A DNA stretch of 64,000 nucleotides from a virus (lineage: Duplodnaviria > Heunggongvirae > Uroviricota > Caudoviricetes), in IMG/VR virus record IMGVR_UViG_3300025853_000050. One strand, given 5' to 3'. The notes below the pieces were generated by a model, which was not told where the DNA came from, searched no databases, and worked only from the letters and a program-made list of their open reading frames with translations. Each line of letters starts with the position of its first letter. The stretch's first letter is position 1. The translations under genes were made by a program, and so were the position numbers. Positions 4,421 through 62,921 of this stretch are shown here, one piece after another.

Positions 4421-5222
4421 CTTCTATTCCGACATCGTCAATTCCACCTTGTTGTTGACTTTCCGTAAATTCACCTTGGCTCCAAACGCCAACTTCTTTT
4501 AAATCTAGTCTAAGGGAAGCTAATACCGGAGAACCGTTTTCTACAAATGCCGGGCCAACTGGAGTATGATCAACTGTAACTCCCATAATTGCGCATGGTT
4601 TAAATCGTAACATATTAAACATGTCATTTGGAAATAGATTAATTAACGCCACGTTGGGATATCCCATAGTTGCCGCACCTATAACTGGAGAAGCATTATC
4701 TTTCAATGTATTTACCATATATCTCAAAGTTTTTGATTCTTGCTCTGTTCTCAGTGCAAATGTCCAACTAAATGAAAATTGTCTAAAAAACGGCCTTTGA
4801 AAGTACAAAATCAAATATGGATTTATTTGAAATCCAGTAATGTTTTGAACCGTTGGATTAGCAACAATAGCGGTTCCTGCATTTTTTACGGCATTTTTGA
4901 CCGGGGATTTACCAGCTCCCGTATTTGTATTAAAGCCATTAAAACTTACCGTACTATGTTCGGACCAACCAACAAGTAAACTATCATTGACTTTTTGAGG
5001 AATTGGTAGGTATAACAAATCGGACCCAGTCAATCCAATTTGATTACGCTCTCCGAAACTATATTCCTGAAATCCAATTTGCATATAAAAGTTATTACCC
5101 CCTTCTTCACCATTCAACAATAGATCATTGGGGAGAAATCTTTTCTTTATGATACGATCCGTGTCCAAAGGGGTTGGAAAATTCGTTACAAGAGGTTTGT
5201 TTAAAGTCGGCGCTAATGGCAT
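4401..5222 (-). CDS. baseplate/tail structural protein (unassigned); start taken at MPLAPTLNKP
   Basis: ORF track 4401..5297; internal Met at 5222 preferred because upstream residues overlap the AT-rich divergent promoter region. Confidence 0.35.
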   Translation of the reverse strand: MPLAPTLNKPLVTNFPTPLDTDRIIKKRFLPNDLLLNGEEGGNNFYMQIGFQEYSFGERNQIGLTGSDLLYLPIPQKVNDSLLVGWSEHSTVSFNGFNTNTGAGKSPVKNAVKNAGTAIVANPTVQNITGFQINPYLILYFQRPFFRQFSFSWTFALRTEQESKTLRYMVNTLKDNASPVIGAATMGYPNVALINLFPNDMFNMLRFKPCAIMGVTVDHTPVGPAFVENGSPVLASLRLDLKEVGVWSQGEFTESQQQGGIDDVGIEDGGFGE

Positions 5223-15465: not shown

Positions 15466-15834
15466 TTACCACTCGTAGCGAAGGCCAATTGAAGTTTCAT
15501 TATATTCAACCCCAAGACCATTAGCTGCATCTGGATTACCAGCAAACTCAAATGCCATATACGCATCTACTTGAGGTAGAATTGCATAATCTGCACCAAA
15601 GGTAACATCACTCAAAGTCAAATCAACTTCTTGAGCTACTTGAAGTTCAGTTTCAGTCCACAAGCTAACTGAGTTGATATCATAAGCAACACCGCCTCCA
15701 AGTGTTACATCTTGGGCATTTACCCCATATTCTGCAAAAGCCTCACCAGACCAAACGCCTGGTTGCATTCCACCAGCCAAGGCTGCTGTTGTTGAAACTA
15801 CCAATGCAGTAGTTGCAATCAAAAATGTTTTCAT
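15466..15834 (-). CDS. small secreted outer-membrane-protein-like protein (signal peptide, acidic beta-rich, C-terminal aromatic)
   Basis: MKTFLIATTALVVSTTAALAGG signal peptide; alternating beta-strand-like pattern; ends LRYEW. Start taken at the internal Met of ORF 15466..15900. Confidence 0.4.
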   Translation of the reverse strand: MKTFLIATTALVVSTTAALAGGMQPGVWSGEAFAEYGVNAQDVTLGGGVAYDINSVSLWTETELQVAQEVDLTLSDVTFGADYAILPQVDAYMAFEFAGNPDAANGLGVEYNETSIGLRYEW

Positions 15835-16154
15835 GTTAAACCTTTCATAAAATTTTAGGAAATAATGCCACACTTCTGTTTCGAGGCAGTGGCCGCCCAA
15901 TGATTACGCAGCTAAGGCGTAATCAAATGCTTTGAAGTTATCGTTAGCATTTATTTTTAAATAGCGTATTCTACAGAGAACTTACTTATTACCAGTCGAA
16001 CCTGAATCGTCCCCATCAAAAGAGTACTGGACGTTTGGAAAATCTATTACACCAGGTTTATTCCAACCCTGATAACCAATACTCTTCTGGTGGAGACGAC
16101 GGGAACTGCCCCCGTGTCCTGAATAACTTTTAGAATCTGATAATCAAATCCGCT

Positions 16155-16200
16155 TATTATTTATATAGTATATTTAATTTTAGTTTAGAAGTAAAGGAAT
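16155..16200 (-). promoter_or_regulatory. T4-type early promoter (minus strand)
   Basis: Reverse complement reads CCTTTACTTCT..(17)..TATACT/TATAAATAAT upstream of the 15834 gene region. Confidence 0.35.
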
Positions 16201-20768: not shown

Positions 20769-21385
20769 GGGATATGAAATTTGATCTTCCAGAACCTTGT
20801 CCAGAAGAATACTACTGGATGAATGCCGATCCAGATGAAATGTGGGTTATGGATAAACTTATTCTATCCAGAAAACTAAATTACATCTGCGGTCCTGTGG
20901 GACAAAGGGTGCCGAAACCAGATTGGTATATCGTCAGACCTTGTGTTAATGCACTCGGCCTTGGTATGGGGGCCAAAAAGGTTTGGATAGAAAACACAAC
21001 GGATAACATGCCTGTGGGACATTTTTGGTCAGAGTTCTTCGAAGGTGATCATCTAAGTGTAGATTATGTTTATGGAAAGCAGACGTTGTGTGTCAAAGGT
21101 ATCAAAAAAGAAAATACAATGACCCGTTGGGATCGTTGGATTAAAACAGACAAAACCATACCGTTCCCGTCTATTCTAAATCAGTTTTCTAATAAAGAAA
21201 TTATTAACTGTGAATTTATTGGTGGCAAACTAATTGAAGTGCATTTCAGAAGAAATGTTGACTTTGATAATGGAATAAAGGAGTTTATACCTGTATGGGA
21301 AGGTCAAAATAAAGTTCCACCGATGGGGTATAAGTTTATTGATTCAAAAGAGTTAAATGGGAGAATAGGAGCTTTTGTTAGATGA
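20759..21385 (+). CDS. hypothetical protein
   Basis: 208-aa ORF; no motif recognised. Confidence 0.35.
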   Translation: MVLRDMKFDLPEPCPEEYYWMNADPDEMWVMDKLILSRKLNYICGPVGQRVPKPDWYIVRPCVNALGLGMGAKKVWIENTTDNMPVGHFWSEFFEGDHLSVDYVYGKQTLCVKGIKKENTMTRWDRWIKTDKTIPFPSILNQFSNKEIINCEFIGGKLIEVHFRRNVDFDNGIKEFIPVWEGQNKVPPMGYKFIDSKELNGRIGAFVR

Positions 21386-21693
21386 CTAATGATAAAGAAA
21401 ATATTATGCAAAAATTGTCTGATCAAACTCAAGAATTTCAAGCATTAATCGAACAAGAAAAACAAGAAATGGACGCCTGGTGGGAAAGTCTTTCGAAGGA
21501 AGACCAAATGAAGGCATTCTACTCGGTAGTTAGCCGTATTGTAAAAGGTGAACTAGAAGACCAGGGATCATATCGTTACGTTTTATATAACGTATTTGGC
21601 TTTGATGCAGATGCATATATAATGGGAATGAATTGTGGATTTATGGCTTTACATAACGCAATCCCACTTGATGTGAAAAAGATGAGTGAATAA
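21382..21693 (+). CDS. hypothetical protein
   Basis: 103-aa ORF; stop/start overlap with its neighbours. Confidence 0.35.
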   Translation: MTNDKENIMQKLSDQTQEFQALIEQEKQEMDAWWESLSKEDQMKAFYSVVSRIVKGELEDQGSYRYVLYNVFGFDADAYIMGMNCGFMALHNAIPLDVKKMSE

Positions 21694-22076
21694 TGACTAA
21701 TAAAATTCCAGATAAGTCTTGGACCAAAAAGGATTTTAAGCTAGACTGGTTTTCAGGAACTGGTGCTGGTGGTCAACATCGAAATAAGCACCAAAACTGC
21801 GTTCGTATCACTCATATTGAGTCAGGTATTACTGTAATCGGACAGAACCATAGAGAAAGATCACGAAATCTAAAGGAAGCGTTTAATATACTTGCCAAGA
21901 AGGTTGTTCAGTGGTATTATGGAGAGGATCAAAAAAATCGGTTCAATGCCACGGATATTGTTAGGACTTACAATGAACCTGATAATCGTGTTGTTGATCA
22001 TAGAACTGGCAAGAAGGTTGCTTACAAGAACTTTGACCTAGAAGATATTATTGGAGAAATTTTAGCAGATGAATGA
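21693..22076 (+). CDS. class-I release-factor GGQ-domain protein (ArfB/YaeJ-like peptidyl-tRNA hydrolase)
   Basis: SGTGAGGQHRNKHQNCVRITHIESGITV matches the RF-1/ArfB GGQ catalytic motif (GGQHVN..VR..H). Size of about 127 aa is typical of ArfB. Confidence 0.6.
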   Translation: MTNKIPDKSWTKKDFKLDWFSGTGAGGQHRNKHQNCVRITHIESGITVIGQNHRERSRNLKEAFNILAKKVVQWYYGEDQKNRFNATDIVRTYNEPDNRVVDHRTGKKVAYKNFDLEDIIGEILADE

Positions 22077-22303
22077 AAAGGGTACGGTAATCTTGTCTTA
22101 GGTAATAATTCAACAAATAGCTAAAGCTTGATACAAAACTTTTAGTATAGTATAGACCCTTGGTTTTTATAATAAACTATTATTAATCGACCTTTTGATA
22201 CCAAAAAATTTCCCGGCGGTTTTTTTATATATAAGGCAAAGCGAAATCCCTTAAAGATGAGGTAAGGCTTTAGTTAAAAGAAAATCGTTTATCGCCTTGC
22301 TTT

Positions 22304-22412
22304 TCGTTTACTCTCGTTGGCGACCCTTCCTTCCCGTTGACTCTCGTTGAAGACTCTTCCTTCTCGTTGACTCTCGTTGAAGACTCTTCCTTCTCGTTGA
22401 CTCTCGTTGGCG
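22304..22412. repeat. tandem direct repeats, about 30-bp unit x3.5 (core CTCGTTGA)
   Basis: ctctcgttgaagactcttccttctcgttga repeated. Confidence 0.8.
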
Positions 22413-22460
22413 ATGCTTATACTCAAAAACTCCTAAACCCCCGAACCATATGTATTAATG

Positions 22461-22471
22461 GTGGGGGGGGG
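22461..22471. repeat. poly-G homopolymer tract (about 10 G)
   Basis: gtgggggggggtt. Confidence 0.8.
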
Positions 22472-22787
22472 TTAGAATAAAAATGACCCTAGCGCATGAT
22501 TCGTTCGTAAGCTTTAAGTATAGCGCTAGCGCAGCGCTACCGCTCAAGCGTTACTCGTGTATACTAATATATAATAAAAGTATCAGCTATATGGGCGAGA
22601 ATAAGAATACTACCCAAAATACAGCCCATCATAATAAAGAAACGAACCACGAAGAAATGGGATTCCATAACGTATCTCCTAAGAAACTTTTATATTATTT
22701 ACATTATACCGTATTTTACGGGGAACCGAAAGAACTTTTCTACGAAATTCAAATTATTATACGGGCACCGCGCTCGCATACAATTTG

Positions 22788-22918
22788 AGTATTTTATCGT
22801 TAGTTGGTTGGTTAGTTGTTGGTTGGTTAGTATATAGTTGGTTGGCAGTTGGTTGGTTAGTATATAGTTGGTTGGCAGTTGGTTGGTTAGTATATAGTTG
22901 GTTGGCAGTTGGTTGGTC
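22788..22918. repeat. tandem direct repeats, about 30-bp unit x3.5 (core GTTGGTTGG)
   Basis: agttggttggttagtatatagttggttggc repeated. Confidence 0.8.
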
Positions 22919-23004
22919 CAGCGCGCGAAGATTCTTAAGAAAACCTCTTTACTTCCAGGGCATCTTAGGGTACAATGGGGTATAGTTAATAAGGAGTTAA
23001 AGCT

Positions 23005-23253
23005 ATGTGGAATAAACCAACCCGTCGCTCTGTCGTCGCCTCTGTTATGTCTGCTAACGAAGGTCAGCCTATGGAAGCTGTCCTTCCCCTGATCGTTGAA
23101 GCTATTTATTCTAACGATCTCCAGAAAGACGGTTTTGGTATGAAGGAAGCTACCCGTGCATACCGTTCTGCCGTTCGTAATGGACGTGCTCCTGGTGAAA
23201 GCTATGCTGATACCAAGGCTAAGGTTACCGAACCCGAAATTGAGGTAGCCTGA
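23005..23253 (+). CDS. small early protein, paralog family A (MWNKPTRRSVVA...)
   Basis: 82 aa; one of four near-identical paralogs; PeSL cassette 1. Confidence 0.55.
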   Translation: MWNKPTRRSVVASVMSANEGQPMEAVLPLIVEAIYSNDLQKDGFGMKEATRAYRSAVRNGRAPGESYADTKAKVTEPEIEVA

Positions 23254-23369
23254 TTTAAGGGGGCTTCGGCCCCCTTTTTTTCGCTTCGCGCGCCGAAGAA
23301 TTCTAAGAAAACCTCTTTACTATCATGATCTTATAGGCTATACTTTAAAAATATATTAAAGGAGAGAAT

Positions 23370-23552
23370 ATGGAATATCCTAAAATTTGCTCAATGCATT
23401 CTGATCTAGAAGCTATGGTTGAGGCTGACGTTAGAGTATGGTGTGCGGAAAATAATCTATCGTTCAATAGTCCTTTTGCGGCATATCGTGCTTATTGGAA
23501 AGCTCAACTTGAAGAGTTTTACGACGATATCAAACACGCCTGGAAACAATAG
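23370..23552 (+). CDS. small early protein (unique)
   Basis: 60 aa; own cassette promoter and RBS GGAGAGAAT. Confidence 0.45.
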   Translation: MEYPKICSMHSDLEAMVEADVRVWCAENNLSFNSPFAAYRAYWKAQLEEFYDDIKHAWKQ

Positions 23553-23656
23553 GAAGGATCTTTTTGCCAGCGCGCCAGAAGAATTCTAAGAAAACCTCTT
23601 TACTTTCATGCCCGTTTAAGGTATAACATACCTATAGTTACTAAGGAGTTAAAGCT

Positions 23657-24166
23657 ATGTGGAACAAACCAACCCGTCGCTCGGTTGTTGCCGAAGTAAT
23701 GAACGCTAACACCGATAAGGCTATGGAAGACGTCCTTCCCCTGATCGTAGAAGCTGAATTGGAAGCCGGTTTTGAATGTGACCTTAAAGTCGCTCGTCGT
23801 CATTATGCTTCGGCTGTCCGTAACGGTCGAGCAACCGGAGTAATGCCGGAACGTAAAGTAGCTAGCCCAAAACCCCGTAAAAAGAAAACTAAAATTGAGG
23901 TAGCTACTACAGCAAGCCCAAAACAGAAAAAGTCTGAGACAAAAGAAACTATTACCGATCAGGAAAAGGATGCTGTTGTCCAGGCTAATATGAAGCGTCT
24001 AATGGATTACCGAGCAAAGCTAAAAGCTAAGGAACAAGACGAAGAAATCAAAAAAGAAGCCCAAGAACAAAAACGTTCGGACGATTACGATACTTCGTTT
24101 GACGATCCTTATGCTTCCCCTAGTTCGCTTTCTGTAGAACAAGTTTCTAACCTTACTGGATACTGA
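23657..24166 (+). CDS. family A paralog with Lys/Glu-rich C-terminal extension
   Basis: 169 aa; N-terminus MWNKPTRRSVVAEVMNANTDKAMEDVLPLIVEA shared with family A. Confidence 0.55.
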   Translation: MWNKPTRRSVVAEVMNANTDKAMEDVLPLIVEAELEAGFECDLKVARRHYASAVRNGRATGVMPERKVASPKPRKKKTKIEVATTASPKQKKSETKETITDQEKDAVVQANMKRLMDYRAKLKAKEQDEEIKKEAQEQKRSDDYDTSFDDPYASPSSLSVEQVSNLTGY

Positions 24167-24282
24167 TTAAAGGGGCTTCGGCCCCTTTTCTTTTGCCAGC
24201 GCGCTGAAGAATTCTAAGAAAACCTCTTTACTTCCATGGCGTCTTAGGGTACAATGACCTATAGTTAATAAGGAGTTCTGCT

Positions 24283-24429
24283 ATGATTAAGACCCGTGTT
24301 GCCTACGAAGCTGCTCTAGCCGTTTATCAGTCCTATCAGGATTTGGGCCGGACGTCTGGTAACGATTTCAAGTTTTTGTTTGAGCTTGCTTATCAAATCG
24401 GTGAATACGAACGTACCTATCTGAAATGA
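24283..24429 (+). CDS. small early protein, paralog family B (MIKTRVAYEAA...)
   Basis: 48 aa; below ORF-track cutoff; cassette promoter and RBS AAGGAG. Confidence 0.45.
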   Translation: MIKTRVAYEAALAVYQSYQDLGRTSGNDFKFLFELAYQIGEYERTYLK

Positions 24430-24538
24430 TCAACGGGGAGCTTCGGCTCCCCAGCGCGCTGAAGAATTCTAAGAAAACCTCTTTACTTCTATGCCCGTTT
24501 AGGGTATAACATACCTATAGTTACTAAGGAGTTCTACT

Positions 24539-24718
24539 ATGATTAAGACCCGTCTTGCCTACGAGGCCGCTTGTGCCGTTTATGACAAATATATTGCTGA
24601 GGGCCGGACGTCCGGTGACGACTCGAAGTTTTTGTCTGAGATATCCCGTCAACTCGCCGATTATGACCGTAGATGCGCCGAGGCTTTATTAAAAGCACTA
24701 GGATACGACTTTACATAA
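24539..24718 (+). CDS. family B paralog
   Basis: 59 aa: MIKTRLAYEAACAVYDKYIAEGRTSGDD... Confidence 0.45.
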   Translation: MIKTRLAYEAACAVYDKYIAEGRTSGDDSKFLSEISRQLADYDRRCAEALLKALGYDFT

Positions 24719-24832
24719 GGAAAGGGGCTTCGGCCCCTTTTTCGCGATGGCGCGCTCACGGATTCTAAGAAAACCTCTTTACTTCCACGGTAGCTTAGGG
24801 TAATATACTCTTATAACTTAAAGGAGCAAATT

Positions 24833-25063
24833 ATGTCTATCAAAAATTCTTATATTTCTGAAGGCTTCGACCTTAGCCACGAAAAAATGGGAATATATAT
24901 TGAGGAATTTGCTGATAATTCTACCCAGCTAACTATTGAGTTAGAAGTTATCCCTGGAGATTCTTATAATTCCCCAACTTTTACTTTCGCCGATCTTTAT
25001 GATGTAAAAAATGTTCGTGATATTCTGAACGAATATATTGAAATAGTTGAAAAAGAACTTTGA
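24833..25063 (+). CDS. small acidic early protein (unique)
   Basis: 76 aa; cassette 6. Confidence 0.45.
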   Translation: MSIKNSYISEGFDLSHEKMGIYIEEFADNSTQLTIELEVIPGDSYNSPTFTFADLYDVKNVRDILNEYIEIVEKEL

Positions 25064-25181
25064 GGAAAGGGGCTTCGGCCCCTTTTTTCTTACCCGAAGC
25101 GCGCCGAAGAATTCTAAGAAAACCTCTTTACTTCCACGGCAGCTTAGGGTATAATGACCTATAGTTAATAAGGAGCCTTAA

Positions 25182-25355
25182 ATGATGATTACCACTCGTG
25201 TTGCCTTTGAAGCCGCTTCTGCCGTTTATGACCGTTATATTAAAGAGTGCCGGGTCTACGGTGACGACTGGACGTTTTTGTGTGAGCTTGCCCGTCAACT
25301 CGCTGCGTTTGATTATGATTGGCGCCCAGCTGCTCTAGCTAATATTGATGAGTAA
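25182..25355 (+). CDS. family B paralog
   Basis: 57 aa: MMITTRVAFEAASAVYDRYIKECRVYGDD... Confidence 0.45.
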   Translation: MMITTRVAFEAASAVYDRYIKECRVYGDDWTFLCELARQLAAFDYDWRPAALANIDE

Positions 25356-25472
25356 GGAAAGGGGAGCTTCGGCTCCCTTTTTTCGCGATCGCGCGCTTGG
25401 CCATAAAAAACCTCTTTACTTCCATGCCCGTTTAAGGTATAATGTACCTATAGCTTTTAAGGAGACCTGCTG

Positions 25473-25670
25473 ATGAATAAAAATAATTACGGCAATCTAG
25501 TGTTAGGTGATATCGACCGTCCAGCCGGGGAGTGCCTTCGCTTTCGCCGGGATGAGAGCGGTGCGTGGTTTGAATATGTGCCACCACAGAATACAGGCCA
25601 AAATACCAAAATCTTTAAAATGGATAATCCAGCCGTAGTAAAAATGCTAATACGTATGTTGAAAGAATAA
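25473..25670 (+). CDS. small early protein (unique)
   Basis: 65 aa; cassette 8. Confidence 0.45.
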   Translation: MNKNNYGNLVLGDIDRPAGECLRFRRDESGAWFEYVPPQNTGQNTKIFKMDNPAVVKMLIRMLKE

Positions 25671-25773
25671 GGAAAGGGGAGCTTCGGCTCCCAGCGCGCT
25701 GGCCATAGAAAACCTCTTTACTTCCATAGCAGCATAGGGTATAATGTACCTATAGCTTTTAAGGAGTTCTGCT

Positions 25774-25947
25774 ATGAAAACCATTGCCGCCATCCGCCGT
25801 GAGATTACAAATCACATCACTGACAAAATTATGAGCAATCCGATGCACAAGGATTCGGACCGGATGACTATCCGTAAACGTACACTACAAGAATTGAAAG
25901 GTATCGACGAAGAATCCCTTCGTAGAATCCATACTAGCATAGCATGA
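25774..25947 (+). CDS. small basic early protein (unique)
   Basis: 57 aa: MKTIAAIRREITNHITDKIMSNPMHKD... Confidence 0.4.
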   Translation: MKTIAAIRREITNHITDKIMSNPMHKDSDRMTIRKRTLQELKGIDEESLRRIHTSIA

Positions 25948-26070
25948 TCCAACGGGGAGCTTCGGCTCCCCAGCGCGCTCGCGGATTTTTTAAGAAAACT
26001 TAAGAAAACCTCTTTACTTCCATGGCAGCTTAGGGTATAACATACCTATAGTTAATAAGGAGTTAAAGCT

Positions 26071-26319
26071 ATGTGGAATCGTCCTACTCGCCGTTCGGTT
26101 GTTGCCTCTGTTATGTCTGCTAACGAAGGCCAGCCTATGGAAGCCGTTTTGCCTTTGATCGTGGAAGCTATCCATTCCGAAAACTTAGAGAAAGATGGCT
26201 TTGGCATTAAGGAAGCTACCCGTGCCTATCGTTCGGCTGTTCGCAACGGTCGTGCTCCTGGTGAAAGCTATGCTGATTCTAAAGCTAAGGCTGCCGAACC
26301 CGAAATTGAGGTAGCCTGA
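26071..26319 (+). CDS. family A paralog
   Basis: 82 aa, near identical to 23005..23253. Confidence 0.55.
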   Translation: MWNRPTRRSVVASVMSANEGQPMEAVLPLIVEAIHSENLEKDGFGIKEATRAYRSAVRNGRAPGESYADSKAKAAEPEIEVA

Positions 26320-26450
26320 TTTAAGGGGGCTTCGGCCCCCTTTTCTTTTGCCAGAGCGCGCCGGAGGATTCTTAAAAAACCTAAGAAAACCTCTTTACTT
26401 CCATGGCAGCTTAGGGTACAATGGGGTATAGTTAATAAGGAGTTAAAGCT

Positions 26451-26699
26451 ATGTGGAATCGCCCTACTCGCCGTTCGGTTGTCGCTGGAGTAATGAACGC
26501 TAACACCGACAAGGCTATGGAAGATGTCCTTCCCCTGATCGTGGAAGCTATCCATTCCGAAAACTTGGAAAAGGATGGATTCGGTATTAAGGAAGCTACC
26601 CGTGCTTATCGTTCGGCTGTCCGTAATGGCCGGGCAACCGGTGAAAGCTTTGCCGATACTAAGGCCAAAGCCTCCGAACCCGAAATTGAGGTAGCCTGA
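26451..26699 (+). CDS. family A paralog
   Basis: 82 aa. Confidence 0.55.
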   Translation: MWNRPTRRSVVAGVMNANTDKAMEDVLPLIVEAIHSENLEKDGFGIKEATRAYRSAVRNGRATGESFADTKAKASEPEIEVA

Positions 26700-26810
26700 T
26701 TTAAGGGGGCTTCGGCCCCCTTTTCTCCATCGCGCGCTGGGCCATAGAAAACCTCTTTACTTCCATGGCAGCTTAGGGTATAATGTACCTATAGCTTTTA
26801 GGGGTTCGCT

Positions 26811-26882
26811 ATGACTACTTTTTTCGTGTTCGTTATCATTGGCCTTGTAGCTTATGATCTGTTTGTACTGGAGAACTATTAA
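26811..26882 (+). CDS. small hydrophobic peptide (23 aa)
   Basis: MTTFFVFVIIGLVAYDLFVLENY; cassette 12. Confidence 0.3.
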   Translation: MTTFFVFVIIGLVAYDLFVLENY

Positions 26883-26971
26883 TGACTTATGCTGGAGTGT
26901 TTGTCTATTTCACCGTTTTGTTTATCGGGATCGCCGTAATGCTATTGATTGATATCAATTACCGAGAAAAA
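26882..26971 (+). CDS. small hydrophobic peptide (29 aa)
   Basis: MTYAGVFVYFTVLFIGIAVMLLIDINYREK; start overlaps the previous stop (TAATGA). Confidence 0.3.
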
Positions 26972-27082
26972 TAAACGTAAAGCTGGAGGGATTTCCTCCA
27001 GCGCGCCAGGCCATATAAAACCTCTTTACTTCCATGGCAGCTTAGGGTATAACATACCTATAGGTAATAAGGAGTTAAATCT

Positions 27083-27304
27083 ATGGGTTTGCTGATGTGT
27101 TTGAATGATATTAATATACGTCGTGCCTATGAGAATGGTACGTTGGTTTGTGAACGATTGGTTGGTCGTCTCGGGCCGTTTATCGCCATTGGTGATGGTT
27201 ATGGCATTTTATGCGTAGCTGATAATGAGTATGATGCAATTGATCGTATTGAGCAGGCGATTGGAAAAGATTTGGAGAAAATTCCATGGGTTAAAAATAA
27301 ATGA
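27083..27304 (+). CDS. small early protein (unique)
   Basis: 73 aa; cassette 13. Confidence 0.45.
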   Translation: MGLLMCLNDINIRRAYENGTLVCERLVGRLGPFIAIGDGYGILCVADNEYDAIDRIEQAIGKDLEKIPWVKNK

Positions 27305-27405
27305 GAAATGGGAGCTTCGGCTCCCAGCGCGCCAGGCCATAAAAAACCTCTTTACTTCCATGGCAGCTTAGGGTATAATGGGGTTTAATCTTATGGAGAA
27401 GTTTT

Positions 27406-27654
27406 ATGAAACTCGGCGATGTAATGGAAACTTTTTCTTGGCAGCCTGAAATTGAACCTTCATTAAAAACTTTGGAAACCAGTTCAGATTTATTTGAACG
27501 GATTAATGCCAACAGCACTTTAATGTCTGTGGCCTTAAAAGTTTCAAACGGAGACGCTTTGCTAGCTGCGGATATCATGGGTCAAGTTCATAAGGTGCTT
27601 GGGCGCGCCGTCGGCATATTCATATTTTATGACCGAAGCGCGCGATCGCCATAA
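27406..27654 (+). CDS. small early protein (unique)
   Basis: 82 aa; cassette 14. Confidence 0.4.
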   Translation: MKLGDVMETFSWQPEIEPSLKTLETSSDLFERINANSTLMSVALKVSNGDALLAADIMGQVHKVLGRAVGIFIFYDRSARSP

Positions 27655-27842
27655 AAAAATTAATGAATTCAACGGATTACCCCTTTACTTTCAGCCCCTA
27701 AACGGTTAAGATATAAAACTAAGTTAAACGCCACGAGTTTCGAAATGAACTAATCGGTTCCATCGTGTTCGAAGAAAGAAAACAACTCATTTCCGAAATA
27801 TCCTTTCGATGTAACGGATCCTTCCTAACCCAGCGTTTAACG

Positions 27843-27965
27843 ATCGAGAACCAAGAATCCGGAACCAGGATTCGCGAACCAAGAATGCGCAACCAAGAAT
27901 CTACAACCAGGAATCTAACAGGAATGCGCAACCAAGATTCTAGAACCAAGAATGCGCAACCAAGA
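27843..27965. repeat. tandem repeats, about 14-15-bp unit x8 (AACCAAGAATGCGC)
   Basis: gaaccaagaatgcgcaaccaagaatctacaaccagg... Confidence 0.8.
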
Positions 27966-28207
27966 ATCCAACATATTATACAATACAACACACTATATTA
28001 CAATGTATAATAAGGTCTAGCTGTTAGGCAATTATCATTAGACCTTATTATACCCATTATGCATTAAACATACATTACTATTGAATTGAATTATGAAAAC
28101 TTAATTTTAGAAATTATTAAAAACGTATAGTGGATTGTATATTACACTTCCGGAATCATTGTTATAATAGAAAAGTATGGGCGGCTTTTGACCGCCTTTT
28201 TTTACAC

Positions 28208-28330
28208 CATGTTGTCAGGGAAGTTGGTCAAGGAAGTTGGTCAAGGAAGTTGGTCACGAGAGTTGGTCAGCCATGTTGGTCACGAGAGTTGGTCAGCCAT
28301 GTTGGTCACGAGAGTTGGTCAGCCATGTTG
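28208..28330. repeat. tandem repeats, about 13-bp unit x9 (core GTTGGTCA)
   Basis: gaagttggtcaaggaagttggtcacgagagttggtcagccatgttggtcac... Confidence 0.8.
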
Positions 28331-28344
28331 GTACGTTACACATA

Positions 28345-28812
28345 TCAATCTCCCAGAGACTTTAGAATATTCATTTTTAACAATCTACCGTTTTTCTGAT
28401 GTTCCTCAGCTTCTTTCAATGTTGAGAAATTTCGATCATGCATTCGATTAATCTTTGATACTTTTTCCTCAGCTTCTTTTCTATCAGTGAAATACTCAAC
28501 AGTTCCATGTTCGTTAATATCTTCAATTGTGATATACTGATAATCACATTTATCGTCAACTAGATAAACCCGATCAAGAAGTTCATATTTATCCCCAGAA
28601 TTACCAATATCACCTTCAATGTTTGTTGCGGTTTTGCCAGTCACTGTTAGTTCTTTTATCTTTCCAACCCACGTTTTGGCTGTATACCGAAACCACACCT
28701 TACCATCAAACTCAGCGAATTCTTTGTCAGGGGTATCATCAAACATCCGGCACTCTTCGATAACCCGATAAACAGTATCACCAATTTTCAAATTATTAAA
28801 ATCAAACATCAT
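28345..28812 (-). CDS. hypothetical protein
   Basis: 155-aa ORF. Confidence 0.35.
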   Translation of the reverse strand: MMFDFNNLKIGDTVYRVIEECRMFDDTPDKEFAEFDGKVWFRYTAKTWVGKIKELTVTGKTATNIEGDIGNSGDKYELLDRVYLVDDKCDYQYITIEDINEHGTVEYFTDRKEAEEKVSKINRMHDRNFSTLKEAEEHQKNGRLLKMNILKSLGD

Positions 28813-29215
28813 TTGGTCGCTTTGTTAGTGTGAACTTCCAATCGCTATGGTCTGGTAGATTATCGAACAATACGATATGATCAATCCGCCGATAATCTTC
28901 CCCACCAGAAACCCACATGTCGTCGTAGTTTTCACTAATTTTTGGTTTTTCCGGGTACATAAACACTTCTAGATTCCGATCCATAGCTGCCCATTGCCAT
29001 CTCCGGTCGATCACTTCCCATGGAATACGCAATTCAATATTTGGCTTGACACGATAAACATTATCTAGATACCAATTGCATTTTTCGCGAACATCATGCC
29101 AACCATTAGTATAACGTTGAATTGTCTTACCATCCCGTTCAGCCATCATAAGATGACGAACATGAGCTGCATGCATATCACCTAGTGCTAGCTTGCTTTC
29201 ATTACGTACAGTCAT
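28802..29215 (-). CDS. hypothetical protein (Trp-rich)
   Basis: 137-aa ORF. Confidence 0.35.
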   Translation of the reverse strand: MTVRNESKLALGDMHAAHVRHLMMAERDGKTIQRYTNGWHDVREKCNWYLDNVYRVKPNIELRIPWEVIDRRWQWAAMDRNLEVFMYPEKPKISENYDDMWVSGGEDYRRIDHIVLFDNLPDHSDWKFTLTKRPNDV

Positions 29216-29667
29216 TACTTTTCTCCTTTATAATAAACAACATGCCATTTGTCAAAAACACATTCATCTGTAAAAATAACATATACTGAATGTTGCATTC
29301 TCAGTGCACCATCATCCCATTCATAATTAGAACGGCTGCCCGTGCTAACAACAGCACCATCTTCTTTTGCCATACGACATGCCTCAATAAAGCTTAGATT
29401 TTTGGGATATTCTTTGTATTCTTCCCATTCATCATAACCGCTAGTAAGCCAGTTACCAATTGATGAGTCAACAACAAAAGAATCGTTATCGCATATGTCA
29501 TAGCTACCATCAGTATATACATCAGCATAGATATATCTGGTGGCGTCTTTCCAATTCCGGCGACGATACCTTTTACCATCAATCAATCCAGGGATAATTT
29601 CGTGGAATTTCATTGTTTTTCTAGTCTCCATTTCAAGGCCATACATCGCCGTACACGACTGATACAA
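29215..29667 (-). CDS. hypothetical protein (start possibly internal at MKFHEII)
   Basis: 150-aa ORF. Confidence 0.35.
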   Translation of the reverse strand: MYQSCTAMYGLEMETRKTMKFHEIIPGLIDGKRYRRRNWKDATRYIYADVYTDGSYDICDNDSFVVDSSIGNWLTSGYDEWEEYKEYPKNLSFIEACRMAKEDGAVVSTGSRSNYEWDDGALRMQHSVYVIFTDECVFDKWHVVYYKGEK

Positions 29668-32388: not shown

Positions 32389-33174
32389 TCAATCAACCAC
32401 AAAACCAGAAGTGTCTTTACGAGCTTTACCCTTGGCGTACAAAGCCACGATAGAGCCATGAGGATCAAGGTGACGGATATCCGTATCATCACCGTCCACC
32501 ACAGGAAGTCCCATGAAAGTTTCCCCGTTCTCTAACAAACGCTGCACAATAGCACGCTCACGAAACACGACAGCAATACGATAGCCAGCGCTGACAGCTT
32601 GCTCGTTCACGTGTTGATAAAGGGGAACACCGGAATAGGAAAAAGTCAAATCGTAGTTTGATGGGATATTCTTACGATTAGTGAGTTTGGTATAATCGTA
32701 GAACTGAACTTCAGGAAACTCCTGAGGAATACCAAAATTCTCCCAACGAATATCGCTCGTGCCGTTCAAGCGGATCAAAGGAACATATCCGCTCTTCGTG
32801 ATAGACTTGACACAACGACGAATTTCCTTGCGAAGGAGTACCAGAAATTCGTCACGATATTGTTGGAAGAATAGGGTTTTACGGAGGCGACCAATTTGAA
32901 CGTTGGACATGGCGCCCATGCCAGCGGTGTTCAAACACGGAGCCTCACACTGAGCCAAAGCTGCTGTCGGGCACATATTCTCACCGGAACCACGCCCGGG
33001 AGTCAGATACATGATAGCAGTCTTGAAACCTTTTTTCTGACCTTTGATGGTTTTCGCATTACCATCAATCGCCAAAAGTTGTTCAGGTTTCTTGGAGAAC
33101 AACTCTCGGTATTTCGGAGTTGTTTCAATTTGCTCCCGGATTTTAGAGGGAACTTTGGTCAGATCATAAATCAT
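32389..33174 (-). CDS. conserved phage protein with Cys cluster (CPTAALAQCEAPC)
   Basis: 261-aa ORF. Confidence 0.35.
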   Translation of the reverse strand: MIYDLTKVPSKIREQIETTPKYRELFSKKPEQLLAIDGNAKTIKGQKKGFKTAIMYLTPGRGSGENMCPTAALAQCEAPCLNTAGMGAMSNVQIGRLRKTLFFQQYRDEFLVLLRKEIRRCVKSITKSGYVPLIRLNGTSDIRWENFGIPQEFPEVQFYDYTKLTNRKNIPSNYDLTFSYSGVPLYQHVNEQAVSAGYRIAVVFRERAIVQRLLENGETFMGLPVVDGDDTDIRHLDPHGSIVALYAKGKARKDTSGFVVD

Positions 33175-37852: not shown

Positions 37853-37865
37853 TTTTGCCTAGCCT

Positions 37866-38175
37866 GAGATTATAGCATAAGATGGAAGTCTTTTGTAGCA
37901 TTATCGTAAGCCTTGCGAGCCACGTTCTCTACGTATCCACTGCATTGTGTGGAACACTAATACAGTATCTTCCAACGCTGCCTTTTTATACAGGTGGCAT
38001 TTCCTGTGTCATACGTCACTACTCGTCTTTCAATCTTCCGCCTGCCTTGCGAGCAGTTCAACTCCGCTAAGAGTTTACGTTTTCTTTCCAAACAAACACA
38101 TCCGCCTTGCGAGCTTCAATGCACCATATTCCCTTACGAGTATGGTATTAAGCGTCTTTAATGACGTACCGGAGT
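37866..38175 (-). ncRNA. structured non-coding stretch inside the tRNA operon (candidate stable RNA, cf. T4 RNA C/D)
   Basis: No ORF; three copies of GCCTTGCGAGC; lies between tRNA genes. Confidence 0.25.
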
Positions 38176-38189
38176 AGACTTTGCTTTTT

Positions 38190-38262
38190 AAACAAATGCA
38201 GGATTTGAACCCACTACCTAAAGATTATGCGTCTTTTGCTCTACCAAATGAGCTAATTTGCG
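38190..38262 (-). tRNA. tRNA-like, anticodon CAT with atypical G33 (possible pseudogene)
   Basis: Good D-arm GCTC-ATTTGGTA-GAGC; T-loop TTCAAAT; anticodon loop CGCATAA. Confidence 0.35.
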
Positions 38263-38289
38263 AACCTACTGTGATGTGCCACTCCAGTT

Positions 38290-38745
38290 GCTTCATATCC
38301 TTTTGGGATACAAAATACAACACATCACCTGTCTTTCTCCTTGCGGGATACTAAACGATACTTCAAGTTTCCAGGTCCTACCCTTTCAACTCTTGTAATG
38401 CTACTTTGCCTTTCCACGCTAATGGTCAAACTCAGTAACTACTCATTGAGTGTAAGATTCGGTAGTTTGGTTAATCGTAGCTTCACCACCACAGTCAATT
38501 AGACCTCACCGATTGGCTCCGGTCACATCCTTTCGGACTACAATTCTACCTTGCTCCACTATTGCCATTCTACTGACAACGAGTTGCTTTCGGCTATCAA
38601 CCGAGTCAACTCCACTCTGAGCTTGTATAGAAGGACCATTGCTGGCGGCAGTTTATAGGAAACCTGCCTTTGGGACTGTTACCAGTCTTACCCTATTCCC
38701 ATGACCCGAAGATCATGGGACAAGCGAGCTATACCTCGCAATTTA
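38290..38745 (-). ncRNA. structured non-coding stretch (several hairpins, UUCG-type loops) inside the tRNA operon
   Basis: Hairpins cccatgacccgaagatcatggg, ggcagtttataggaaacctgcc and gtcacatcctttcggac; no plausible ORF. Confidence 0.25.
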
Positions 38746-42512: not shown

Positions 42513-42764
42513 TTAAGTCGTCACACTGATAAAATCTGATCTTTCAGGAGTTTTATTAAGATCTTCCCATTCTTGACGGGTTGTTCCGTAAAGAATAAAT
42601 TCTTGAGCTTCGACAGAAATATCAGGAAATGCATCCTCCAGTGTAATTTCCCCATTTTCAAAAGCATGATATTTTATATCAAAATCTAACTGAGAATAGT
42701 TCTTAAACTCCAGAGTTCTTACTCTTTCGGTCAACATCGATTTATTTCTGAATCTGGCTGACAT
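42513..42764 (-). CDS. hypothetical protein
   Basis: 83-aa ORF. Confidence 0.3.
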   Translation of the reverse strand: MSARFRNKSMLTERVRTLEFKNYSQLDFDIKYHAFENGEITLEDAFPDISVEAQEFILYGTTRQEWEDLNKTPERSDFISVTT

Positions 42765-62596: not shown

Positions 62597-62860
62597 ATGG
62601 GTCAACTTGAGCAACATCTACGAGAAACAAGGCAAGAAGCAAATATCCTATACGTAATAGCGATCATATCGTGCATCGTGTCAAACGCTGCCTTTCTTCC
62701 TATTACGTATTTTCCTAATTTGTCTACTAATATGTCTATTGGAACTCAGGCAAATATAGGCGCGGTCGCGTGTACATTTGCGCTAATTGGGTTCGTAACT
62801 ATAACCAGGGCAAGTGCGCTTTACACATATTTAAAACGTAATTCGGCCTCTATAGTATAA
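62597..62860 (+). CDS. small membrane protein (uncertain; 3' end overlaps tRNA-like gene)
   Basis: 87 aa, hydrophobic. Confidence 0.25.
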   Translation: MGQLEQHLRETRQEANILYVIAIISCIVSNAAFLPITYFPNLSTNMSIGTQANIGAVACTFALIGFVTITRASALYTYLKRNSASIV

Positions 62861-62921
62861 TGGTTAGTGCGCCTGCCTCTAAATCAGTGAAGTGTTGGTT
62901 CGAATCCGACTAGAGACACCA
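62846..62921 (+). tRNA. tRNA-like gene with anticodon CTA (amber-suppressor-type), weak anticodon stem
   Basis: Standard 76-nt geometry: acceptor GCCTCTA/TAGAGAC, TA, D GTAT-AATGGTTA-GTGC, anticodon loop CTCTAAA, T-arm GTTGG-TTCGAAT-CCGAC, ACCA. Confidence 0.4.

Follow-up and report, generated by a model that had tools for sequence, protein, structure and literature searches.

The mRNA of T4 gene 32 carries a translational operator that is unstructured, consists of reiterated A/U-rich UUAAA motifs, is nucleated by a pseudoknot and is bound by gp32. On double-stranded DNA, small dimeric proteins such as omega of pSM19035, or ParR at parC, occupy operators or centromeres built of contiguous short repeats; the spacing is fixed and promoters are overlapped. 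Direct repeats of unproven function, which close relatives conserve, are also found at T4 oriE (PMC3016281). Rho has a footprint of ~57 nt, with a span of 12–13 nt between subunits (PMC6144790). Finally, hyperplastic regions of the PeSL type, with promoter-early stem-loop cassettes, have been described for T4-type genomes (PMC4122927). The DNA analysed here is a stretch of 64 kb from an uncultured T4-like phage, hereafter the window, and its segment from 22919 to 27712 matches that last description. This segment holds ~15 cassettes on the + strand, the content of which differs among strains. Each cassette is ordered as terminator hairpin, GCGCGC box, early promoter (AAACCTCTTTACTTCC-N-TATAAT), AAGGAG and small ORF. 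The last cassette promoter (27679–27712) has no ORF behind it and reads into one of the repeat arrays described below.

The initial annotation placed four iteron-like tandem repeat arrays around the cassettes. Tandem Repeats Finder, used as array caller on the whole window, recovers all four with coordinates within ~10 bp of those given. Array A1 (22296–22415, + strand) was called at 22296–22409 with a period of 30, 3.8 copies and 90% match. In each of its four 30-mers, two TCTCGTTGA cores occur at a spacing of 10 and 20 bp, and the + strand of the array is pyrimidine-rich. A2 (22796–22918, − strand; called at 22807–22917) has a period of 30 with a 15-nt sub-period, 3.7 copies and 96% match. 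Its units read AACCAACTATATACT and AACCAACCAACTGCC on the − strand, and AGTTGGTTGG on the + strand, spaced by 11 and 19 bp; the first cassette promoter box, CAGCGCGC, directly adjoins the array. A3 (27849–27969, + strand; period 14, 8.9 copies) is a run of nine units of ~14 nt, made of AACCARGAWT and a free spacer of 2–4 nt. Its C/A-rich strand is the + strand, which is the sense strand of the + block. A4 (28202–28335, − strand; called at 28214–28332) has a period of 26 built from 13-mers, 4.6 copies and 91% match. Here, nine 13-mers consisting of KACCAAC and a 6-nt spacer (CATGGC, TCTCGT or TTCCTT) are followed by a last degenerate core, and the array starts ~12 nt past the stop codon of a 155-aa gene. 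No further non-coding array of comparable score was called in the window. The unit motifs occur far more often than expected by chance and are confined to the arrays. Thus, AGTTGGTYR has 16 matches in the window against 1.85 expected (13 of them inside A2 and A4), CTCGTTGR has nine against 2.3 (six inside A1) and AACCARGAWT has eight against 1.3, all inside A3.

The arrays are non-coding, as had been proposed. They have periods of 13, 14 and 26, contain stop codons and lack protein relatives, and a 26-bp copy-number difference separates strains. In related phages the arrays do not lie within a conserved repeat-protein gene; they are intercistronic and adjoin a small gene at its start codon. 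The genome has few large non-coding gaps, and all of the arrays are located in such gaps. In the gap to the left of the cassettes (22077–22918), no gene is supported. A search of 1.84 billion representative proteins with the one sizeable ORF there (65–101 aa) gave no credible relative, and the single weak match looks like a translated DNA repeat. The 65-aa orphan ORF between A1 and A2 (22591–22788, + strand), on which gene callers disagree across contigs, has no Shine–Dalgarno sequence seen upstream and no Pfam or PHROG match; it is probably not a gene. A1 and A2 are also separated by a hairpin (22433–22475, + strand; DNA fold −10.8 kcal/mol, z = −2.9), in which CCCCC pairs with a run of G. 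This run had been described as G10 and is a G9 at 22463–22471. Between A3 and A4 there is an AT-rich stretch of 240 bp (GC 0.31) containing a perfect 15-nt inverted repeat with a 19-nt loop (28005–28053; z = −3.7). A bidirectional intrinsic terminator, called on both strands, marks the point at which + and − transcription converge (28179–28203), and GC skew changes sign at ~28300. Both non-coding regions have a layout of array, hairpin and inverted array, which a pure relic model does not predict.

Sequence comparison indicates that the arrays are related to one another beyond chance. A2, A3 and A4 have the core KACCAAS in common, the other strand of which reads GTTGGT (in full, GTTGGTM). The initial annotation had noted a shared TTGGTT, direct in A2 and A4 and inverted in A3. 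The sharing and the orientations hold; the common word is TTGGT, since A4 reads TTGGTC. Words of at least 7 nt are common to three array pairs, an outcome seen in 0.3% of shuffles (P = 0.003). A1(+) and A4(−) share the spacer words ACTCTCGT and CTTCCTT, in inverted orientation. The tie of A1 to the family is made solely by such spacer words and a CCAAC/TCAAC core; in this comparison, at least three arrays share the core. Changes fall mainly outside it. All seven substitutions inferred for A4 are in the spacer (P = 0.013), as are seven of the nine changes in A3, within four spacer columns (P = 0.03).

Counterparts were sought in other T4-type genomes. Arrays with a KACCAAS core, free spacers and a period of 12–14 are present in uncultured T4-like phages that show synteny to the window. 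These relatives were first found by searching with the A4 core and so form a biased sample; a later gene-anchored survey was independent of the core. Three of them (L446, L443 and L512) encode gp32, gp59, gp33, DUF932 and phrog_1250 homologues on one strand, with 48–71% identity, and have their array between phrog_1250 and DUF932, with core and strand as in A4. A2 and the L446 array have ACCAACTATAT and CGCTGGACCAA in common. In array-bearing relatives, 4–9 units occupy the entire gap from the upstream gene to the ATG of a conserved small gene, phrog_20898, and the C/A-rich strand is the mRNA sense strand. The array ends 0–22 nt 5′ of this ATG in eight sequence-distinct loci (L446, L512, L484, L495, L443, L489, L491 and L496), four of which have a GACCAAC(T)ATG junction. 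The phrog_20898 start site in these relatives lacks a Shine–Dalgarno sequence. Across 12 related loci (66 units), position 1 of the unit is G or T in 66/66 and position 7 is C in 47/66, both positions being outside the search anchor. Unit spacing in these loci is 12 (32 times), 13 (13 times) or 14 (11 times), and the spacers are free. Conserved cores with free spacers, within the arrays and over the 12 loci, fit a recognition motif, in line with the protein-binding character first suggested. Cultured-phage homologues of phrog_20898 have no array upstream; hence, the link between gene and array is specific to this clade. The homologue in the window (83 aa; 42513–42764, − strand) lies within an operon and likewise has no array upstream.

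The arrays are at the boundaries of the cassette region, as first described, and comparison with related phages identifies these boundaries as real breakpoints. On the left, a 5′ gene remnant of ~35 nt with a 1-nt deletion (22077–22112, + strand) derives from the gene directly 3′ of the RF-1-domain gene in the closest relative. There, ATGAAAAAGGGTACGGCAATCTTGTCTTAGGTAATA opens a 120-aa gene (L193/L194; RF-1 protein 91% identical), and homology to the window ends at ~22112. The remainder of this 120-aa gene has its homologue in a cassette ORF (25473–25670). On the right, homology to L044–L046 ends at the stop codon of the 155-aa gene. The closer relatives, with flanking proteins 78–91% identical, have ordinary genes at these spots, and A1 and A4 are absent. 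L045 has homologues of the genes at 21382 and 28345 on the same strand, and L446 lacks the + block. A4 matches the L446, L512 and L443 arrays in core, strand and synteny. It contains ACCAACATGGCT three times, three units read ACCAAC ATG GCT, and it ends with GACAAC ATG GTG TAA (28210–28202) followed by the terminator.

Copy number varies among near-identical contigs. A1 has one 30-bp unit fewer in three contigs (L034, L035 and L043), A2 is shorter by two units (60 bp) in L034 and differs by one SNP in L039, and A4 has one 26-bp unit fewer in L034, L035 and L038; these are metagenomic contigs from short-read assemblies, so assembly artefacts may account for some of the differences. The four contigs that span A3 share one sequence for it, and three assemblies are interrupted in or close to A1. 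Expansion and contraction would occur by replication slippage. Such variation, the near-perfect higher-order units indicative of recent expansion, the lack of arrays at these spots in closer relatives, and the confinement of all arrays to large gaps of a kind rare in the genome would suit neutral minisatellites, arising by independent slippage in rearrangement junk DNA and never functional. However, the shared cores are not accounted for if the arrays arose independently. Moreover, core, strand and synteny are kept in phages with only 48–71% protein identity, and substitutions are confined to spacers. The conserved arrays of the relatives have already weakened this explanation, which we regard as very unlikely.

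The arrays are real, mutually related, variable in copy number between contigs and situated at breakpoints, with conserved counterparts in relatives. We give a probability of about one half to the reading that the four arrays derive from one clade-specific KACCAAS cis-element, as non-coding copies prone to slippage that are now detached at rearrangement junctions. Because the core is kept while spacers drift, and the phrog_20898 start has no Shine–Dalgarno sequence, the ancestral array would have been a selected recognition element. Reading would most likely have taken place on the transcript, where the array would be an unstructured leader recruiting a ribosome or repressor, or else by means of a sequence-specific factor. 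In the lineage of the window, the + strand early-gene block including the cassettes would have cut the ancestral locus between the DUF932 gene and the phrog_1250 cluster. A4 would be the orthologous array without its gene, with duplicated relics of the start site and a two-codon stub run into the terminator, and A1, A2 and A3 would be paralogous or diverged copies left at other junctions. The repeated microhomology of the arrays may have helped these rearrangements. Any present role in the window would be limited to unstructured C>G stretches that aid the end of transcription at two unit ends. Since the relatives' arrays are intercistronic and adjoin a start codon, the comparison points to a transcript-level or leader role at least as much as to iterons of the classical double-stranded DNA kind. 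Such a role cannot extend to all four arrays, since A2 runs antisense to the + genes around it. A3, identical in 4/4 contigs and located behind an ORF-less early promoter, may act as a functional RNA instead of being a relic.

The conserved 7-nt core with free spacers, and the close association of array and small gene in eight sequence-distinct loci, could be expected of operators, or of insulator- or centromere-like arrays, at which KACCAAC cores in double-stranded DNA are bound by a phage protein, for which the phrog_20898 product is a candidate. Such binding would bring about autoregulation of the gene that follows the array in relatives; its targets in the window would be the first cassette promoter, the region of which starts where A2 ends, and the unit ends. 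The cores of A1 (10/20 bp) and A2 (11/19 bp) are near helical phase, and some units contain TTGACC, which resembles a −35 box. Conversely, spacings of 12, 13 and 14 bp are mixed in single arrays, off helical phase and unusual for cooperative binding to double-stranded DNA, and the arrays lie between cistrons, in register with the ATG. The phrog_20898 protein has no DNA-binding family match, a fold search with its model (pLDDT 68.6) gave no significant match, and the homologous genes of cultured phages lack arrays. We consider binding of this kind unlikely.

Fold computation indicates that all four arrays are unstructured as single strands, with essentially no structure in A2. C minus G is +0.12 for A1(+), +0.08 for A3(+), +0.20 for A4(−) and +0.31 for A2(−), and YC dimers form chains of 5–9 at steps of 11–15 nt. 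Hence, the arrays might be rut-like modules for Rho loading, with YC dimers every 12–14 nt fitting the primary sites of the hexamer. They would stop read-through after the RF-1 gene (A1) and before the shared terminator (A3 and A4), and in relatives impose polarity ahead of a gene without a Shine–Dalgarno sequence. Array lengths of 60–125 nt compare with the ~57-nt footprint and 12–13 nt between subunits (PMC6144790). A4, and an array of the same type in L505, are directly 5′ of intrinsic terminators. However, YC dimers suffice for Rho, which leaves the conserved core unexplained, and the YC-chain measure does not discriminate: in A3 and A4 the opposite strands score just as high. Such motifs are also frequent by chance, at ~3.5 per kb in E. 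coli (PMC6144790). With A2 antisense to local transcription as well, Rho loading seems distinctly unlikely.

The elements between A3 and A4 bear on the proposal of a replication origin, modelled on T4 oriE, oriF and oriG. In such an iteron-type origin, inverted A3 and A4 would flank an AT-rich unwinding region, the ORF-less promoter would supply primer RNA, and A1 and A2 would be a second module. The AT-rich element is indeed present, at 240 bp and 31% GC, with its perfect inverted repeat and arrays on both sides; the early-type promoter has no ORF behind it, transcription switches strand here as at three T4 origins, and direct repeats exist at oriE (PMC3016281). Overall, an origin is not supported. 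No initiator or Rep-like gene was found nearby, GC skew merely mirrors gene orientation, and the 12–14 bp spacing varies within arrays. In relatives the core occupies a gene leader of 60–120 bp that does not adjoin AT-rich DNA, and closer relatives have no arrays at these spots. The oriE repeats themselves are a coding repeat of unproven replication role. An origin is thus highly improbable.

Read as detached copies of a leader element, the arrays resemble several known systems in part. Like the T4 gene 32 operator, which precedes a T4-type early gene, the KACCAAC arrays of relatives would form a structure-free leader with a short motif repeated up to a start codon. The operator differs in its A/U-rich motif, its pseudoknot and its binding of gp32, and the copies in the window have no gene. 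Omega and ParR–parC also place 5–10 short direct or inverted repeats beside the gene for a small protein, but with fixed spacing and overlapped promoters, whereas the arrays here are intercistronic with a variable spacing of 12–14; family and fold searches found no ribbon-helix-helix or helix-turn-helix signature. Rut sites share the C>G skew, the paucity of structure and YC dimers 11–15 nt apart over at least 60 nt (PMC6144790), but they have no conserved sequence core, and the rut measure is not specific here. T4 oriE likewise combines a T4-type genome, short direct repeats and a nearby change of transcription strand (PMC3016281). We rejected these 'iterons' as a precedent, as they fall on a 24-nt coding repeat within gene 5 (L319, 5427–5558); they are neither syntenic with nor similar in sequence to the window arrays, which are non-coding with periods of 13–15 or 30. 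Unlike PeSLs, the arrays lack both a stem-loop and an early promoter consensus, are tandem and occur at the outer junctions only. PeSL-type cassettes nevertheless fill the segment between them, and PeSLs and arrays alike stand where genes are gained, lost and shuffled (PMC4122927).

Tandem Repeats Finder located four arrays where the initial annotation had placed them. These are A1 at 22296-22409 (30-mers, 3.8 copies), A2 at 22807-22917 (30-mers, each made of two 15-mers, 3.7 copies), A3 at 27849-27969 (14-mers, 8.9 copies) and A4 at 28214-28332 (26-mers that resolve into 13-mers, 4.6 copies). All four consist of direct repeats of one unit, with 4-9 units apiece, and the same program found no similar-scoring non-coding array elsewhere in the 64 kb. 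The core words of the arrays occur at 4-9 times the shuffle expectation and nearly all copies are inside the arrays. The claimed common core was recovered from A2, A3 (inverted) and A4, but as TTGGT rather than TTGGTT, because A4 reads TTGGTC. Likewise, the reported G10 tract is present as G9, and closes a hairpin.

The arrays occupy two gaps in the coding sequence (22077-22918 and 27655-28344), one on either side of the cassette region, and are non-coding. The periods of A3 and A4 (14, 13 and 26) are not divisible by 3, and half of the frames across A1 and A2 hold stop codons. Between A1 and A2 there is just one ORF of any size, and a search of 1.84 billion representative proteins gave it no credible relative; its single weak match looks like translated DNA repeat. 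A 26-bp length step in A4 would put any frame out of register. The opposing possibility, that the arrays are part of a conserved gene for a repeat-containing protein, is contradicted by their intergenic position in related phages. No Rfam family was found in the non-coding regions at gathering or permissive thresholds. Compared with shuffles, the single strands of A1, A2 and A4 show no better folding (z from -1.0 to +1.8), and A3 forms modest hairpins. When the arrays and the ORF-less transcript (27713-27850) were folded, only the known hairpins appeared. A check of A2, A4 and the G-run by ViennaRNA with RNA parameters predicted no G-quadruplex in the arrays, so that the resemblance of GGTTGG-N5-GGTTGG in A2 to the thrombin aptamer is at most a lead. 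A CRISPR array was rejected; the 'spacers' are just 5-7 nt and no cas gene was found among the ORFs checked beside the arrays. Transposon ends, suggested by inverted arrays at both ends, were also rejected. A search of cassette and flanking ORFs found no transposase, and as termini the outer arrays do not match each other. A literature search on the core words found nothing relevant.

Comparison of the arrays with one another points to a common source. Words of at least 7 nt are shared by three pairs: A2 and A4 (AGTTGGT, direct), A2 and A3 (TTGGTTG, inverted) and A1 and A4 (ACTCTCGT, inverted). As many pairs arose in 0.3% of shuffles, and we regard the arrays as mutually related. The word CTTCCTT is also common to A1 (+) and A4 (-). 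Read on the C/A-rich strand, the A4 unit is GACCAAC plus 6 nt and the A3 unit is AACCAAG plus 7 nt, with a period of 14. The A2 unit is AACCAAC with alternating spacers, giving a spacing of 11/15. Change has fallen mainly between the cores. Thus, all 7 inferred substitutions in A4 are in 5 spacer columns (P = 0.013), as are 7 of 9 changes in 4 spacer columns of A3 (P = 0.03). Only A4 fully matches the pattern of a K-A-C-C-W-A-C/S core, free spacers, 4-9 units and a period of 12-14. A2 and A3 fit this core, and A2 has ACCAACTATAT and CGCTGGACCAA in common with the array of contig L446, one of the relatives described below. A1 fits only by way of its end units (GCCAAC) and the spacers that it shares with A4; it resembles a copy of A4-type units that has diverged further. 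Both non-coding regions have the same layout of array, hairpin and inverted array, and A2 is antisense to the local genes.

Six near-identical metagenomic contigs span some or all of the arrays. Among them A1 measures 120 or 90 bp, A2 either 118 or 58 bp and A4 either 121 or 95 bp, and these lengths combine in at least four ways. A3 is 120 bp in all four contigs that cover it. These are short-read assemblies, in which some collapse of repeats is possible; two of the contigs break off within A1, and another just upstream.

We surveyed other phages for the same element in two ways. The first survey, an IMG/VR pattern search for three GTTGGTCA cores, returned unrelated repeats and contigs syntenic with the window. 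L446 encodes homologues of gp32, gp59, gp33, the 377-aa protein, DUF932 and phrog_1250 on one strand, at 48-71% identity. Contigs L443 and L512 have the same order for the genes within reach. In all three, the interval between phrog_1250 and DUF932 holds an array whose strand, relative to these genes, is that of A4, and the + strand block is absent from the site. A4 is also positioned between the phrog_1250 cluster and DUF932, and its C/A-rich strand is the sense strand for them. Because A1-A3 are in the lineage-specific block, this shared site bears on A4 only. The second survey was anchored on the gene downstream of the array and is independent of the core. It identified eight sequence-distinct loci (L446, L512, L484, L495, L443, L489, L491 and L496) in which a run of 4-9 units stops 0-22 nt short of the ATG that starts a phrog_20898 gene. 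These genes are conserved, encode 71-73 aa and have no Shine-Dalgarno sequence; at four of the eight loci the junction reads GACCAAC(T)ATG. Two other contigs (L459 and L505) carry an array of the same type after the gene region, that of L505 just before an intrinsic terminator. Among 66 units from 12 loci, the search anchor is always preceded by G or T (66/66) and is followed by C in 47. The spacers are free and the spacing is 12, 13 or 14 nt, mixed within one array. Since the core was kept while the proteins diverged to 40-70% identity, the ancestral array is under selection.

Further searches widened the comparison. Cultured-phage homologues of phrog_20898 have no arrays upstream, and the A3-type pattern retrieved only period-15 repeats from IMG/VR. 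Among the matches listed for three copies of GTTGGT (IMG/VR) or AGTTGGT (metagenomes), most were coding repeats unrelated to the window. Among the matches listed for three copies of GTTGGTCA in bacterial genomes (L320-L439) there are many arrays that repeat this core every 13-14 nt, for instance in Streptomyces (L331, L334, L343 and L392) and cyanobacteria (L348, L354 and L387), which may reflect ascertainment only. Several IMG/VR contigs (L453 at 4519-4724, L462 at 1-218, L447 and L456) contain a perfect 12-mer array, CCTATTGACCAA, in 4-9 copies. This is ~45 bp from an 18-mer array, ATAGTTGTTGTTACTTAA, a further instance of paired arrays with a TGACCAA core. L453 and L462 also carry a distant homologue of the window ORF 32389-33174.

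On its - strand, A4 contains ACCAAC ATG GCT three times, which is the core followed by the Met-Ala start seen in several relatives. The array ends in GACAAC ATG GTG TAA and runs into a bidirectional terminator (28179-28203); the ATG of a phrog_20898 gene is absent. As it lacks this ATG, we class A4 as a decayed member of the KACCAAC leader arrays and a probable orthologue of those in the relatives. The window does encode a phrog_20898 homologue, 14 kb away at 42513-42764, inside an operon and with no array upstream. In the closest relatives the homologue is likewise in an operon without an upstream array.

The window is from an uncultured T4-like phage that is divergent. It encodes homologues of gp32, gp59 and the late-transcription co-activator (T4 gp33 family) at 13.6-15.7 kb, and its matches to numerous T4-family proteins are at ~39% identity. 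No close DNA match was found among GenBank phages. Genes are on the - strand at 13.6-18.9 kb and from 28.3 to ~60 kb, and a + strand block occupies 19.45-27.65 kb. Some 15 cassettes run from 22919 to 27712 (+), each with a GC-rich hairpin, a GCGCGC box, the early promoter word of the phage, AAGGAG and a small ORF. This is the make-up of the published PeSL type of hyperplastic region (PMC4122927). Among the cassette ORFs are paralogues of two families, one of 82 aa (four copies, with a 169-aa variant) and one of 48-59 aa (three copies). Pfam gave no match for the 82-aa family or for the single 48-59-aa member that was searched, the 82-aa family has no IMG/VR relative, and the promoter word gave only chance matches or nothing in IMG/VR. 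Cassette content varies among the near-identical contigs. Downstream of an early-type promoter (27679-27712) come 136 nt without an ORF (27713-27848, +) and then A3. A long-range stem is possible in this interval, between GTTAAACGC and GCGTTTAAC, and is no better than in shuffles (z = -1.2).

Several other features of the genome were noted. A permuted tmRNA of alphaproteobacterial type, with the tag ANDNFKAFDYALAA, is encoded at 15813-16194 (-) between the gp33-like gene and a 118-aa ORF. A small RF-1-domain protein (ArfB or peptidyl-tRNA-hydrolase-like) is encoded beside A1 (21693-22076, +) and has thousands of metagenome relatives. Together, these genes suggest that the phage carries its own ribosome-rescue functions. 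A full-length GOLLD RNA (37861-38328, -; 224 bits against a gathering score of 150) contains tRNA-Met (38190-38262) and stands at the start of a cluster of ~25 tRNA genes (37.6-48.7 kb). ARAGORN also called a tRNA with the amber-reading anticodon CTA, labelled Pyl, at 62846-62921 (+), which may be a suppressor. A 150-aa ORF at 29215-29667 (-) scores 24.2 bits for the Tad2-like (Thoeris anti-defence 2) domain, slightly under the Pfam cut-off of 25.

The initial annotation had offered recombination boundaries as one explanation for the arrays, and this is borne out at both outer edges. Relatives 91% and 81% identical to the RF-1-domain protein beside A1 have genes directly after it and not an array. 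In the 91% relative, the next gene begins with sequence left in the window as a 35-nt stub (22077-22112), and the remainder of its homologue is the cassette ORF 25473-25670. On the other side, relatives 78-85% identical to the 155-aa protein beside A4 have further genes after it and no array. Homology with the window ends at the stop codon of the 155-aa gene, and A4 starts ~12 nt on. The truncated stub and the end of homology at this stop codon mark both outer edges as rearrangement breakpoints. In contig L045, homologues of 21382-21693 and 28345-29215, which are on the + and - strands of the window, respectively, are on the same strand. Relatives of the phrog_3577 gene in IMG/VR have neither synteny nor comparable arrays.

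Protein-binding iterons and an origin had also been proposed. The origin reading is unsupported. No Rep-, DnaA-, O- or primase-like family, nor any other DNA-binding or replication family, was found in the cassette and flanking ORFs with Pfam and PHROG. GC skew tracks gene strand, changing sign at ~19.4 and ~28.3 kb, and so only mirrors transcription. AT-rich DNA occurs between A3 and A4, as 240 bp with a GC content of 0.31; the stretch between A1 and A2 (37-42% GC) is at the genome average. Fixed helical-phase spacing (~11 or 22 bp) is absent, with 14 bp in A3, 13 bp in A4 and a mixture of 12-14 in relatives. Only the cores of A1 (10/20 bp) and A2 (11/19 bp) come near to helical phase. Furthermore, in relatives the element is a gene leader and is not beside AT-rich DNA. 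The arrays probably do derive from a recognition motif, as proposed, since cores are kept and spacers are free; it is the origin that finds no support.

What might recognise such a motif? A double-stranded DNA operator, bound by the small phrog_20898 protein, is a possible but unsupported reading. This protein matches no DNA-binding family, and the model of a homologue has moderate confidence (mean pLDDT 68.6) and matches nothing in the PDB at E < 5; in addition, the cultured-phage homologues are without arrays. The intercistronic site, register with the ATG, lack of a Shine-Dalgarno sequence, tolerance of 12-14 nt spacing and absence of structure all fit an array that would be read at the transcript level. 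Loading of Rho at rut-like sites is a candidate role of this kind and is compatible with the C>G skew, YC spacing and lengths of the arrays. The strands A1 (+), A2 (-), A3 (+) and A4 (-) are C>G and unstructured, with YC dimers at 9-13 nt linkers. However, the opposite strands of A3 and A4 are equally high in YC, so the measure is unspecific, and Rho would leave the conserved 7-nt core unexplained. Rut-like motifs are common by chance (PMC6144790).

Taken together, the arrays are most likely detached, slippage-prone copies of a conserved, clade-specific cis-element, situated at rearrangement junctions. A broader proposal, to which we assign some three chances in ten, is that the KACCAAC array is an undescribed, orientation-locked cis-regulatory module, reiterated and structure-free, of an environmental T4-like clade. 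It would replace the Shine-Dalgarno sequence and be read in the transcript by the ribosome, a phage repressor or Rho. Its dispersed copies would be preferred breakpoints for inserting or inverting hyperplastic early-gene blocks.

In the densely packed T4-type genomes, shuffling of the variable regions is attributed to PeSL promoter-terminator cassettes. To these, the arrays add another kind of short repeat, located where such a region borders on its surroundings and tied to a conserved element of relatives that occupies the place of a ribosome-binding site before a widespread small gene. Should the core prove a genuine recognition site, it would offer a direct handle on control of the phrog_20898 gene, and it could also help to mark where uncultured T4-like phages have rearranged. 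If the window copies are mere relics, they still show an array once selected as a leader becoming a set of polymorphic minisatellites after gene loss.

The arrays differ from two known elements of T4-type phages. PeSL elements combine a terminator stem-loop with an early promoter and the arrays have neither; the early promoter word is found only in cassettes and other intergenic sites, never within an array. At T4 oriE, the direct repeats, often cited as iterons, coincide with a repeat of 24 nt (8 codons) in the coding sequence near the 3' end of gene 5 (L319, the T4 genome, 5427-5558; NC_000866 79426-79557), ~70-200 bp from the annotated oriE point. Their role is undefined according to a review (PMC3016281). 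That the oriE 'iterons' coincide with a coding repeat cautions against calling an origin from repeats alone. The defining arrangement of oriE, a 12-nt conserved word every 24 nt in a gene 5/repEA-repEB region, is absent from the window. The oriE repeats are within gene 5, and the window region with the arrays lies between homologues of DUF932 and phrog_1250.
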